A stretch of 64,000 nt of DNA, taken from assembly GCF_055900595.2 (NCBI RefSeq), contig NZ_CM148325.1, one strand, 5' to 3'. The first letter of the stretch is position 1. Each line of letters opens with the position of its first letter. Both the position numbers and the translations under genes were made by a program. Shown here piece after piece: positions 4,250 to 44,737 of this stretch. A model generated the notes under the pieces. That model did no database searches, was not told the DNA's origin, and was given only the letters and a program-made list of their open reading frames with translations.

Positions 4250-4337
4250 GGTGAGGTGTCCGAGTGGCTGAAGGAGCACGCCTGGAAAGTGTGTATACGG
4301 CAACGTATCGGGGGTTCGAATCCCCCCCTCACCGCCA
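4250..4337 (+). tRNA. serW: tRNA-Ser (anticodon GGA)
   Basis: 88-nt sequence ggtgaggtgtccgagtggctgaagg...ggttcgaatccccccctcaccgcca with long variable arm, anticodon loop ccuGGAaag, T-loop GGTTCGAATCC and encoded 3' CCA. Confidence 0.95.
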
Positions 4338-4388: not shown

Positions 4389-4468
4389 CTGCCTGTACGG
4401 CAGTGAACGGTATAAAAATCGAGTTTTCCTTTCGGTTGGCTTTCTAAGCTGCCTGTACGGCAGTGAAC
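4389..4468. repeat. Two direct copies of the 20-bp motif ctgcctgtacggcagtgaac, 60 bp apart
   Basis: Exact 20-mer at 4389-4408 and 4449-4468; each copy has a short internal dyad ctgcc...ggcag. Confidence 0.8.
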
Positions 4469-19163: not shown

Positions 19164-20882
19164 ATGAAACAAACGGTTGCAGCTTATATCGCCAAAACAC
19201 TCGAATCAGCAGGGGTAAAACGCATTTGGGGAGTGACTGGCGACTCTCTGAACGGTCTTAGCGACAGTCTTAATCGCATGGGCACCATCGAGTGGATGTC
19301 CACCCGTCATGAAGAAGTGGCGGCCTTTGCCGCTGGCGCTGAAGCCCAACTTAGCGGGGAACTGGCGGTCTGCGCCGGATCATGCGGACCTGGCAACCTG
19401 CACTTAATCAATGGTTTGTTCGATTGTCACCGTAATCACGTTCCGGTACTGGCAATTGCCGCTCATATCCCTTCCAGCGAAATTGGCAGCGGCTATTTCC
19501 AGGAAACCCACCCGCAAGAGTTATTCCGCGAATGTAGCCATTATTGCGAGCTGGTTTCCAGCCCGGAGCAGATCCCACAAGTGCTGGCGATTGCTATGCG
19601 TAAAGCGGTGTTAAACCGTGGCGTTTCCGTTGTCGTGTTACCGGGCGACGTGGCGTTAAAACCGGCACCGGAAGGGGCAACCACGCACTGGTATCATGCG
19701 CCACAACCAGTCGTCACCCCAGAAGAGGAAGAGTTACGCAAACTGGCGCAACTGCTGCGTTACTCCAGCAATATCGCTCTGATGTGTGGCAGCGGTTGCG
19801 CGGGGGCGCATAAAGAGCTCGTCGAGTTTGCCGGAAAAATTAAAGCGCCTATTGTTCATGCCCTGCGCGGTAAAGAACATGTCGAATACGATAATCCGTA
19901 TGATGTCGGAATGACGGGATTAATCGGCTTCTCGTCAGGTTTTCATACCATGATGAACGCCGACACGTTAGTGCTGCTCGGCACCCAATTCCCCTACCGT
20001 GCGTTCTACCCGACCGATGCCAAAATTATTCAGATTGATATCAACCCGGCCAGCATCGGCGCGCACAGTAAGGTGGATATGGCACTGGTCGGTGATATCA
20101 AATCGACTCTGCGTGCATTGCTGCCTTTAGTGGAAGAAAAAACCGATCGCAAATTTCTGGATAAAGCGCTGGAAGATTACCGCGATGCCCGCAAAGGGCT
20201 GGACGATTTAGCTAAACCGAGTGAGAAAGCCATTCACCCGCAATATCTGGCGCAGCAAATTAGCCATTTTGCTGCCGATGACGCCATTTTCACCTGTGAT
20301 GTCGGCACACCAACGGTATGGGCGGCGCGTTATCTGAAAATGAACGGCAAGCGCCGCCTGTTAGGTTCGTTTAACCACGGTTCAATGGCCAACGCCATGC
20401 CGCAGGCGCTGGGTGCTCAGGCGACAGAGCCAGAACGTCAGGTGGTCGCCATGTGCGGTGATGGTGGTTTCAGTATGTTGATGGGCGATTTTCTCTCAGT
20501 GGTACAAATGAAGCTGCCAGTGAAAATTATCGTCTTTAACAACAGCGTGCTGGGCTTTGTAGCGATGGAGATGAAAGCCGGAGGCTACCTGACTGACGGC
20601 ACCGAACTGCACGACACCAACTTTGCCCGCATTGCTGAAGCGTGCGGTATTACGGGCATCCGCGTAGAAAAAGCCGCTGAAGTCGATGAAGCCTTGCAAC
20701 GCGCCTTTTCCATCGACGGCCCGGTGCTGGTGGATGTGGTAGTCGCGAAAGAAGAGTTAGCCATTCCGCCGCAGATCAAACTCGAACAGGCCAAAGGATT
20801 TAGCCTGTATATGTTGCGCGCAATCATCAGCGGACGCGGTGACGAAGTGATCGAACTGGCGAAAACGAACTGGCTAAGGTAA
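19164..20882 (+). CDS. poxB: Pyruvate oxidase (ubiquinone-dependent, thiamine diphosphate enzyme)
   Basis: 572-aa [35 protein letters not shown]-terminus typical of TPP enzymes; synteny. Confidence 0.93.
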
Positions 20883-20919
20883 AAAGGGTGGCATTTCCTG
20901 TCATAAATAAGGACATGCC

Positions 20920-21921
20920 ATGATTGATTTACGCAGTGATACCGTTACCCGACCGAGCCGCGCCATGCTCGAAGCAATGATGGCCGCCCCGGTTGGGGAC
21001 GACGTTTACGGAGACGACCCTACCGTTAATGCTCTGCAGGACTATGCGGCAGAGCTTTCCGGGAAAGAAGCCGCCATTTTTCTGCCTACCGGCACTCAGG
21101 CCAACCTGGTCGCTCTGCTCAGTCACTGCGAGCGCGGCGAAGAGTATATTGTCGGTCAGGCCGCGCATAACTATCTGTTTGAAGCCGGTGGCGCAGCGGT
21201 GCTGGGCAGTATTCAGCCGCAACCCATCGATGCTGACGCCGACGGTACGCTACCGCTGGATAAAGTCGCCATGAAAATCAAACCCGACGATATCCATTTC
21301 GCCCGCACCAAATTACTCAGTCTGGAAAACACCCACAATGGAAAAGTGCTGCCGCGGGAATACCTGAAAGAAGCATGGGAATTTACTCGCGAGCGCAATC
21401 TGGCACTGCATGTTGACGGTGCGCGCATCTTTAATGCCGTGGTGGCTTACGGCTGCGAACTGAAAGAGATCACGCAATATTGTGATTCGTTCACCATTTG
21501 TCTGTCGAAAGGTCTTGGTACGCCAGTCGGTTCATTACTGGTCGGCAATCGTGATTACATTAAACGCGCCATCCGCTGGCGGAAAATGACTGGCGGCGGG
21601 ATGCGTCAATCCGGCATTCTGGCTGCCGCAGGGATGTATGCGCTGAAAAATAACGTCGCACGCTTGCAGGAAGACCACGACAACGCAGCCTGGATGGCGG
21701 AGCAGTTGCGTGAAGCAGGCGCGGATGTGATGCGTCAGGACACCAATATGCTGTTTGTTCGCGTCGGACAAGAAAATGCTGCCGCGTTAGGCGAATACAT
21801 GAAAGCGAGAAACGTACTGATTAACGCCTCGCCGATTGTCCGCCTGGTAACCCATCTTGATGTCTCGCGTGAACAACTGGCAGAAGTCGCAGCCCACTGG
21901 CGCGCTTTCCTGGCGCGTTAA
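20920..21921 (+). CDS. ltaE: Low-specificity L-threonine aldolase
   Basis: 333-aa ORF, PLP aldolase family; synteny. Confidence 0.9.
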
Positions 21922-21931
21922 GGAGAGAGAC

Positions 21932-23362
21932 GTGCCGCAACGCATTTTAGTTCTCGGTGCCAGTGGCTATATTGGTCAGCATCTGGTGCACGCGCTCAGC
22001 CAACAAGGGCATCAGATCCTGGCGGCAGCACGTCACGTCGACAGGCTTGCAAAACTGCAACTGGCAAACGTCAGTTGCCATAAAGTCGATCTCAGCTGGC
22101 CGGATAACCTTCCGGCCCTGTTGCAGAATATCGATACCGTCTATTTTCTGGTGCACAGCATGGGCGAAGGCGGCGATTTTATCGCTCAGGAACGCCAGGT
22201 AGCTCTTAACGTCCGCGATGCGCTGCGCGAAGCACCGGTTAAACAATTAATCTTTCTGAGTTCATTGCAGGCCCCGCCTCACGAGCAGTCGGACCATCTG
22301 CGCGCCCGTCAGGCTACGGCGGATATTCTTCGTGAAGCGGGTGTCCCGGTGACCGAATTGCGTGCCGGAATTATCGTTGGCGCAGGTTCAGCGGCGTTCG
22401 AAGTTATGCGCGATATGGTCTACAACCTGGCGGTGTTAACCCCGCCGCGTTGGGTTCGTTCACGCACCACGCCCATTGCACTGGAAAACCTGCTGCATTA
22501 TCTGGTGGCGTTACTGGACCATCCAGCCTGGGAACATCGCATTTTCGAAGCCGCCGGACCAGAGGTGCTCAGTTATCAACAACAGTTTGAACATTTTATG
22601 GCGGTGAGCGGTAAGCGCCGCTGGTTAATCCCCATCCCCTTTCCCACCCGCTGGATTTCGGTGTGGTTTCTCAATGTGATTACTTCCGTACCGTCAACCA
22701 CCGCCAAAGCGTTGATTCAGGGGCTGAAACACGATCTGCTGGCGGATGACACCGCGCTACGTGCACTCATTCCACAACAACTGATCGCTTTCGATGACGC
22801 GGTACGTCGCACGTTGAAAGAAGAAGAAAAGCTGGTCAACTCCAGCGACTGGGGATACGACGCTCAGGCCTTTGCCCGCTGGCGACCGGAGTACGGTTAT
22901 TTCGCCAAACAGGCGGGGTTTACCGTTAAAACGTCCGCCAGCCTTGCGGCTTTATGGCAGGTGGTGAATCAAATCGGCGGTAAAGAGCGTTATTTCTTTG
23001 GCAATATTTTGTGGCAAACCCGGGCGTTGATGGACCGCGCGATCGGTCATAAGCTGGCGAAAGGCCGCCCGGAGCGTGAATATTTGCAGACCGGAGATGC
23101 GGTGGATAGCTGGAAAGTGATTGTCGTTGAACCGGAAAAACAACTTACGCTGTTATTTGGCATGAAAGCGCCGGGGCTGGGACGACTGTGTTTTACCCTG
23201 GAAGATAAAGGTGACTATCGTACTATCGATGTTCGCGCATTCTGGCATCCGCACGGTATGCCGGGGCTGTTTTACTGGTTATTGATGATCCCCGCGCATC
23301 TGTTTATTTTTCGCGGAATGGCAAAACGAATCGCCAGACTGGCAGAACAAAGCACAGATTAA
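21932..23362 (+). CDS. ybjT: NAD(P)-binding Rossmann-fold protein YbjT
   Basis: 476 aa from a GTG start ([16 protein letters not shown]) preceded by GGAGAG; the ORF-track ATG at 21857 would overlap ltaE by 65 nt. Confidence 0.85.
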
Positions 23363-23460
23363 TCGACAAAACCTGCGTTATTCTTTCATGTTTCCCATTG
23401 CATCAAGGGGGAAATCACGGAAGAATGCGCACGTCATTTTCTCAACAACAGTGGATTGAT

Positions 23461-39827: not shown

Positions 39828-40730
39828 CTAACCACCCGTTTTCAGGCAATATTCGGTCGTAGCGTGGCGTTCGATCCAGCGGATCATTTTACCCGCGATG
39901 TCGATACCGGTGGTTTTTTCTATTCCTTCCAGCCCCGGCGACGCATTCACCTCCATCACCAATGGCCCGCGATTAGCACGCAGAATATCCACACCAGCAA
40001 CGTCCAGCGCCATCGTTCGCGCGGCTTTTATCGCGATTTCACGCTCCTGTGGTGTGATACTGGCGACGCTTGCCGCGCCTCCACGATGCAAATTGGAACG
40101 AAAATCGCCCTCTTTCGCCCGCCGTTCAATCGCAGCGACCACTTCATCGCCAACAACCAGACAGCGGATATCGCACCCTTGCGCCTCTTTGATATATTCC
40201 TGCACCAAAATATGCGCGTTCAGACCGCGGAAAGCGTCAATCACGCTTTCCGCCGCCTGACGCGTCTCCGCCAGCACGACACCAATTCCCTGCGTACCTT
40301 CAACCAGCTTAACCACCAGCGGCGCACCACCGACCATGTCGATTAAATCGCTGGTATCATCCGGCGAATGCGTAATGCCCGTGACAGGCAGGTCGATGCC
40401 CTGACGCGCCAACAGCTGCATGGAACGCAACTTGTCACGCGCCCGGGCAATGGCGACCGACTCATTGAGCGGATAGCTCCCCAGCATTTCAAACTGACGT
40501 AGCGCCGCCGTCCCATAAAAGGTAATGGCGGTGCCAATACGCGGGATCACAGCGTCAAAATGGGGTAACTTGCGGCCTTTGTAGTGAATAGAAGACGCCG
40601 CAGGATTTATGTTCATGTAGCAAGAAAGCGGATCAAGAATTTCAACCAGGTGACCACGCTGTATAGCGGCTTCACGCAGCCGCTTACACGAATAGAGCGT
40701 TCCATCCCGGGACAATATGGCAATTTTCAC
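39828..40730 (-). CDS. rimK: Ribosomal protein S6 glutamate ligase RimK (ATP-grasp)
   Basis: 300-aa [12 protein letters not shown]...; ATP-grasp fold; synteny. Confidence 0.92.
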
Positions 40731-44639: not shown

Positions 44640-44718
44640 GCCACTGCTTTTCTTTGATGTCCCCATTTTGTGGAGCCCATCAACCCCGCCATTTCGGTTC
44701 AAGGTTGGTGGGTTTTTT
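44640..44718 (+). ncRNA. rybB: RybB small RNA (sigma-E-dependent, Hfq-binding repressor of outer-membrane protein mRNAs)
   Basis: gccactgcttttctttgatgtccccattttgtggagcccatcaaccccgccatttcggttcaaggttggtgggtttttt matches RybB as I recall it (conserved 5' seed GCCACUGCUUUUCUUUGAUGUCCCC and terminator hairpin with U-run); lies between ybjL and rcdA. Confidence 0.85.
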
Positions 44719-44737
44719 GTTATCTAAAATTTATCTA

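Follow-up and report, generated by a model that had tools for sequence, protein, structure and literature searches.

Comparative evidence for initiation of ybjT at a GTG codon behind ltaE in the Escherichia coli chromosome

The 64-kb stretch of DNA analyzed here (64,000 nucleotides of contig NZ_CM148325.1 from RefSeq assembly GCF_055900595.2, hereafter the window) is part of the Escherichia coli chromosome, in which poxB, ltaE, ybjT, and ybjS follow one another on the + strand. The coordinates of ltaE match the RefSeq annotation mapped from a 100% identical strain. The features around the beginning of ybjT are as follows:

19164-20882, + strand: poxB, according to the list of open reading frames (ORFs) and the RefSeq annotation of the identical strain.
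20920-21921, + strand: ltaE, encoding low-specificity L-threonine aldolase (333 aa), from the ORF list, with its TAA stop codon at 21919-21921.
21857-21871, + strand: in-frame upstream start candidates of ybjT (TTG 21857, ATG 21860, and GTG 21869), located within ltaE and judged to be unused.
21921-21927, + strand: Shine-Dalgarno sequence AGGAGAG, sharing its first A with the end of the ltaE stop codon (TAAGGAG).
21932-21934, + strand: GTG, the probable initiation codon of ybjT, assigned by conservation and reference annotation.
21932-23362, + strand: ybjT as predicted from this codon (476 aa), with an N-terminal NAD(P)-binding Rossmann/SDR part and a C-terminal DUF2867 domain, from translation and Pfam.
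21956-21979, + strand: GASGYIGQ, a GxxGxxG dinucleotide-binding motif at residues 9-16 of the 476-aa YbjT, from translation.

Across the ltaE-ybjT junction the letters read ...CTGGCGCGT TAA GGAGAGAGAC GTG CCG CAA CGC ATT..., and the distance between the ltaE stop codon and the GTG at 21932 is 10 nt. A preliminary description of this DNA had placed the start of ybjT at this GTG, right after the ltaE stop and 8 nt behind a GGAGAG sequence, and had reported that the longest ORF begins at an ATG at 21857 inside ltaE. The choice of the GTG is supported by Shine-Dalgarno pairing, conservation, a switch of reading frame, and the beginnings of the protein domains, all of which agree, and the 476-aa product with GASGYIGQ near its N-terminus was confirmed by translation. 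Several details had to be corrected. The longest ORF of the frame does extend over 21857..23362 (501 aa), but its first codon is TTG, and ATG (21860-21862) is only the second. The GGAGAG is present at 21922-21927, but the spacing is 4 nt (6 nt from the GGAG core), and the GTG does lie downstream of the TAA, but after a gap rather than immediately.

Signals in the window itself point to the same codon. The duplex between the 3' tail of 16S rRNA and the 18 nt before GTG 21932 was calculated at -9.2 kcal/mol, and the same measure yielded -2.8 kcal/mol for both TTG 21857 and ATG 21860 and +0.3 kcal/mol for GTG 21869. The AGGAG at 21921-21925 precedes the GTG by 6 nt, which agrees with a canonical Shine-Dalgarno site, that is, complementarity to the anti-Shine-Dalgarno sequence at a spacing of 5-9 nt. 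In the window lineage, the ybjT frame stays open for 84 nt upstream of the GTG; the chance of 25 open codons in random sequence is approximately 0.3, calculated as (61/64)^25, and such an open stretch before a real start is unremarkable. The minimum-free-energy RNA fold at the junction pairs part of the Shine-Dalgarno sequence. Structural RNA regulation was considered and dropped, because this fold is indistinguishable in stability from those of shuffled sequences (z = -0.33).

A comparative analysis of the junction was conducted with one genome per species, which generated a set of 80 Enterobacteriaceae loci. The GTG start is kept in 76 of these species. The exceptions are four loci, from Atlantibacter, Buttiauxella, Dryocola, and a mislabelled 'C. 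freundii', where an ATG with a GAGG-type site of its own lies two codons upstream. Six Citrobacter loci contain both this ATG at -6 and the GTG. A GGAG at -10 or -9 was detected in 72 species, and the stop-overlapping arrangement of the TAAGGAG type in 71. An in-frame stop codon less than 75 nt upstream closes the ybjT frame in 70/80 species, and in 65 of the 80 it lies within 45 nt. The preliminary description had proposed that an alignment of orthologs conserving the 25 upstream residues would speak against the GTG; these residues proved not to be conserved. Among collinear sequences the hypothetical extension shows a protein identity of 36% and is interrupted by stop codons in 51 of 62, in comparison with identities of 77% for the LtaE C-terminus, which is encoded by almost the same DNA, and 88% for YbjT residues 2-26.

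The pattern of substitutions gives a further indication of where translation of ybjT begins. Column variability was computed on the 61 loci that are exactly collinear with the window. Over the 75 nt before the ltaE stop codon, it amounts to 0.56, 0.55, and 1.28 at ltaE codon positions 1, 2, and 3, respectively, and the variable third position of ltaE corresponds to codon position 2 of the ybjT frame upstream of the GTG. After the GTG, the values at ybjT codon positions 1, 2, and 3 are 0.35, 0.24, and 1.10. Substitutions before the GTG track the ltaE frame, and the coding-type pattern changes to the ybjT frame at the GTG. A genuine N-terminal extension would be expected to remain open and conserved as protein and to start at a conserved codon behind a ribosome-binding site of its own, and none of these properties was found. 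GTG 21932, on the other hand, combines a conserved start codon and Shine-Dalgarno sequence with a coding pattern that begins at the start.

Domain and homology searches were also used to locate the N-terminus. The N-terminal Pfam matches are NAD_binding_10, Epimerase, and NmrA (PF13460, 1.3e-16; PF01370, 8.7e-16; PF05368), and DUF2867 (PF11066, E = 8.6e-15) covers residues 357-488 of the 501-aa form. The N-terminal domains begin at residues 28-34 of the 501-aa form; profile position 1 of Epimerase and NAD_binding_10 falls at residues 30 and 34, respectively, so that no domain reaches into the 25 extra residues, and position 1 of Epimerase corresponds to residue 5 of the 476-aa form. A HMMER search of 1.84 billion representative proteins revealed 8995 relatives of YbjT. 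None of the best 150 of these aligned with residues 1-20 of the long form; the query enters these alignments at residues 21-33, and the homologue in most cases at residues 2-12. The protein is approximately 97% identical to the main E. coli cluster (6891 members), and the Rossmann domain with GxxGxxG, DUF2867, the gene order, and the high identity to K-12 were all found, as expected of a YbjT orthologue.

A group of LtaE-YbjT fusion proteins (P0001-P0014, mapping to approximately 20920-23362) was also observed in public databases, among the top matches of the homology search. They are singletons of 720-814 aa, their junctions differ within the last ~20 ltaE codons, other odd substitutions are present, and LtaE and YbjT sequences are chained through them into one 90%-identity cluster. 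The fusions were rejected as a sign that the extension is translated. Indel errors that carry ltaE over into the open ybjT frame are their most likely origin, since singletons with different junctions and extra errors are consistent with frameshifts in assemblies.

The GTG start of ybjT is already known, as reference annotations place it there. In MG1655, ybjT (b0869, NP_415390.4, named 'putative NAD(P)-binding protein YbjT') occupies 906852..908282 (1431 nt, 476 aa) and starts 10 nt after ltaE. The same GTG is annotated in seven other RefSeq genomes processed with PGAP, namely the 100% identical strain and six chosen across the identity range, although starts recorded in databases are predictions too and do not count as independent observations. 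The expectation that automated callers may get this start wrong was thus largely unfounded, as MG1655 and all seven of the other genomes use the GTG. In a collection of approximately 15 billion public proteins, 391 contigs encode a protein identical to the 476-aa product of the window, and no 500- or 501-aa form of the window allele was found there. For the K-12 allele, at least 1000 contigs of the same collection carry the 476-aa form and none carries the 501-aa form. The single miscall encountered, a 486-aa form of the K-12 allele that starts at a GTG at -30, was found on 7 contigs with old annotations under the name 'putative dTDP-glucose enzyme'; in the window, this position is GCG (21902-21904). 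Older pipelines thus overcalled the gene now and then, at another codon, and this has been settled for a long time. The version number of NP_415390.4 suggests a historical revision of the ybjT start. No start-site entry for ybjT/b0869 was found in the possibly partial supplements of TetRP, Giess et al. 2017, and the TRAINSPOTTER N-terminomics study, and their silence is not taken as support.

On this comparative and sequence evidence, ybjT almost certainly starts at GTG 21932 and encodes a product of 476 aa.

The upstream codons were then compared in a sample of 12 Escherichia sequences. In this sample, ATG 21860 is restricted to the window and the strain identical to it, and ACG is found in the other 10 of the 12, including K-12-like strains and O157:H7; in ltaE, the difference is synonymous (GAT/GAC). 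Three of the 12 sequences have lost TTG 21857, and the ybjT frame is shut by a TAG at -21 in E. albertii, E. whittamii, and one species-representative genome of E. coli. Among about 5425 complete-genome records, only 8-10 are at least 99% identical to the window in ltaE/ybjT, which marks its allele as one of a rare lineage. Over the ltaE-ybjT junction (window 21700-23000), 3466 records are only 90-95% identical. In a segment of rimK (window 40000-40400), identity reaches at least 99% in 95 records and is 95-99% in all others. Thus, ltaE-ybjT is unusually divergent even for this genome, possibly owing to an old recombination tract or relaxed constraint.

The derived ATG raises the question of dual initiation confined to the window lineage, in which most YbjT would be made from GTG 21932 and a minor extended isoform from the new ATG 21860. 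The frame is open from this ATG down to the GTG, and E. coli genes with internal or alternative starts have been reported (10.1101/520783). However, ATG 21860 lacks a Shine-Dalgarno sequence and lies inside a translated gene, where ribosomes elongating in the ltaE frame would probably occlude it. Moreover, the ATG arose through a synonymous change in ltaE (GAC to GAT), as would be expected from neutral drift, and no sign of selection on the extension was detected. Dual initiation is consequently regarded as very unlikely. That the GAC-to-GAT change permits low-level initiation within ltaE, giving a lineage-specific 500-aa isoform that shares the DNA of its first 24 codons with ltaE in another frame, is a fainter prospect still.

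Initiation of YbjT at ATG 21860 or TTG 21857 alone would yield a protein of 500 or 501 aa, with its first 25 codons overlapping, in the +1 frame, the final 62-65 nt of ltaE. Such a start would give the longest ORF, ATG is a stronger start codon than GTG, and no stop interrupts the frame in the window lineage or in most of the E. coli sampled. Against this, neither codon has a Shine-Dalgarno sequence, the ATG is absent from K-12, O157:H7, and eight other Escherichia sequences and the TTG from three, and the extension, stopped in most species, evolves with the ltaE frame only. It is covered by no Pfam domain and by no homologue among the best 150 of 8995, and the public collection contains no 500- or 501-aa call for the window or the K-12 allele. 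An upstream start is largely refuted by the comparative data and is considered exceedingly improbable. A true start elsewhere near the GTG, such as a couple of codons off as in Atlantibacter, Buttiauxella, and Dryocola, is suggested by the four species with ATG at -6 and the six Citrobacter loci with both codons, but has a negligible probability here, because GTG 21932 is the sole in-frame ATG, GTG, or TTG between -63 and +30 in the window, which leaves no neighboring alternative.

With GTG 21932 as the preferred start, the expression of ybjT can be placed in the context of its transcription unit. It has been reported that poxB, ltaE, and ybjT are co-transcribed as an operon (PMC2759082), of which ybjT is the last gene. 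An experimentally mapped Reg-Seq transcription start labelled 'ybjT' is located at MG1655 909320, which falls between the poxB stop and the ltaE start (approximately window 20883-20919). Since it is upstream of ltaE, it also gives an ltaE-ybjT message, and the promoter that Reg-Seq assigns to 'ybjT' is in fact an internal promoter of the poxB operon serving ltaE and ybjT. No sigma-70-like site was detected on the + strand of window 20800-23600, and no promoter- or terminator-like site on the + strand between ltaE and ybjT. A private ybjT promoter inside ltaE was considered and dropped, given the lack of a sigma-70-like site and the position of the Reg-Seq start upstream of ltaE.

In the proposed mechanism, ybjT would be translated from GTG 21932 by ordinary Shine-Dalgarno-led initiation. 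Ribosomes that terminate on ltaE would be released on the ribosome-binding site of ybjT, and the pair shows both co-transcription and a close stop and start, as is characteristic of coupled genes. Translational coupling of ltaE and ybjT is therefore suggested as plausible by the geometry, because the ltaE stop lies within the Shine-Dalgarno sequence and the start is 10 nt away. The resulting YbjT of 476 aa would carry its Rossmann beta1-GxxGxxG element from residue 5, and the 75 nt of open frame upstream, which lie in frame +1 at the 3' end of ltaE, would be open by chance and not translated as part of YbjT. The explanation as a whole, with initiation at GTG 21932, a geometry suggestive of coupling, and an untranslated extension, is considered highly probable.

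These results indicate that the reference start of ybjT is well supported comparatively and that a longest-ORF rule would mislead here. This pitfall is a textbook point already handled by current pipelines, and the significance of the case is very small. It may nevertheless serve as a worked example of how three signals, namely a ribosome-binding site overlapping a stop codon, upstream in-frame stops, and a third-position frame switch, can fix a start without experiments.

Several other features of the window were recorded. In the next gene, ybjS (window 23398-24474), the longest ORF runs from TTG 23398 (358 aa) vs. ATG 23461 in RefSeq (337 aa), and here, too, the RefSeq start brings the Rossmann motif to the N-terminal end. 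A CRISPR-type direct repeat is present in two copies 60 nt apart, at 4389-4408 and 4449-4468, with an Rfam CRISPR-DR4 match at 4441-4468 on the minus strand, directly downstream of tRNA-Ser(GGA) (4250-4337). The segment 4389-4468 resembles a minimal orphan array in which a single spacer separates two repeats. A vestigial type I-F array, 'CRISPR4', is a feature of the clpA-serW-infA region of E. coli. Matches to three Rfam families, all expected features of E. coli, reached the gathering score:

31888-31968, - strand: naRNA4 (CssrE).
32925-32967, - strand: ES036 (CssrF).
44643-44721, + strand: RybB sRNA.

The closest known counterpart of the locus is ybjT of MG1655, which shares with the window the gene context, the GTG, the 10-nt gap, the 476-aa length, and an identical TAAGGAGAGAGACGTG junction. 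The window allele differs from that of K-12 in having ATG instead of ACG at 21860 and in being without the K-12 GTG at -30. At the protein level, YbjT resembles atypical/extended SDR or NmrA-like proteins with DUF2867, as it has the same N-terminal Pfam set and the C-terminal DUF2867. With initiation at GTG 21932, its GxxGxxG at residues 9-15 occupies the usual place in SDR proteins, a few residues from the N-terminus. Solved structures match the Rossmann half of YbjT alone, and weakly (best 3dqp, E = 2.5e-6). In comparison with translationally coupled operon genes, ltaE and ybjT likewise share one operon, a distance of 10 nt, and a stop codon embedded in the Shine-Dalgarno sequence (TAAGGAG), an arrangement seen in 71 of the 80 species. 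The strong Shine-Dalgarno sequence of ybjT could equally drive independent initiation.
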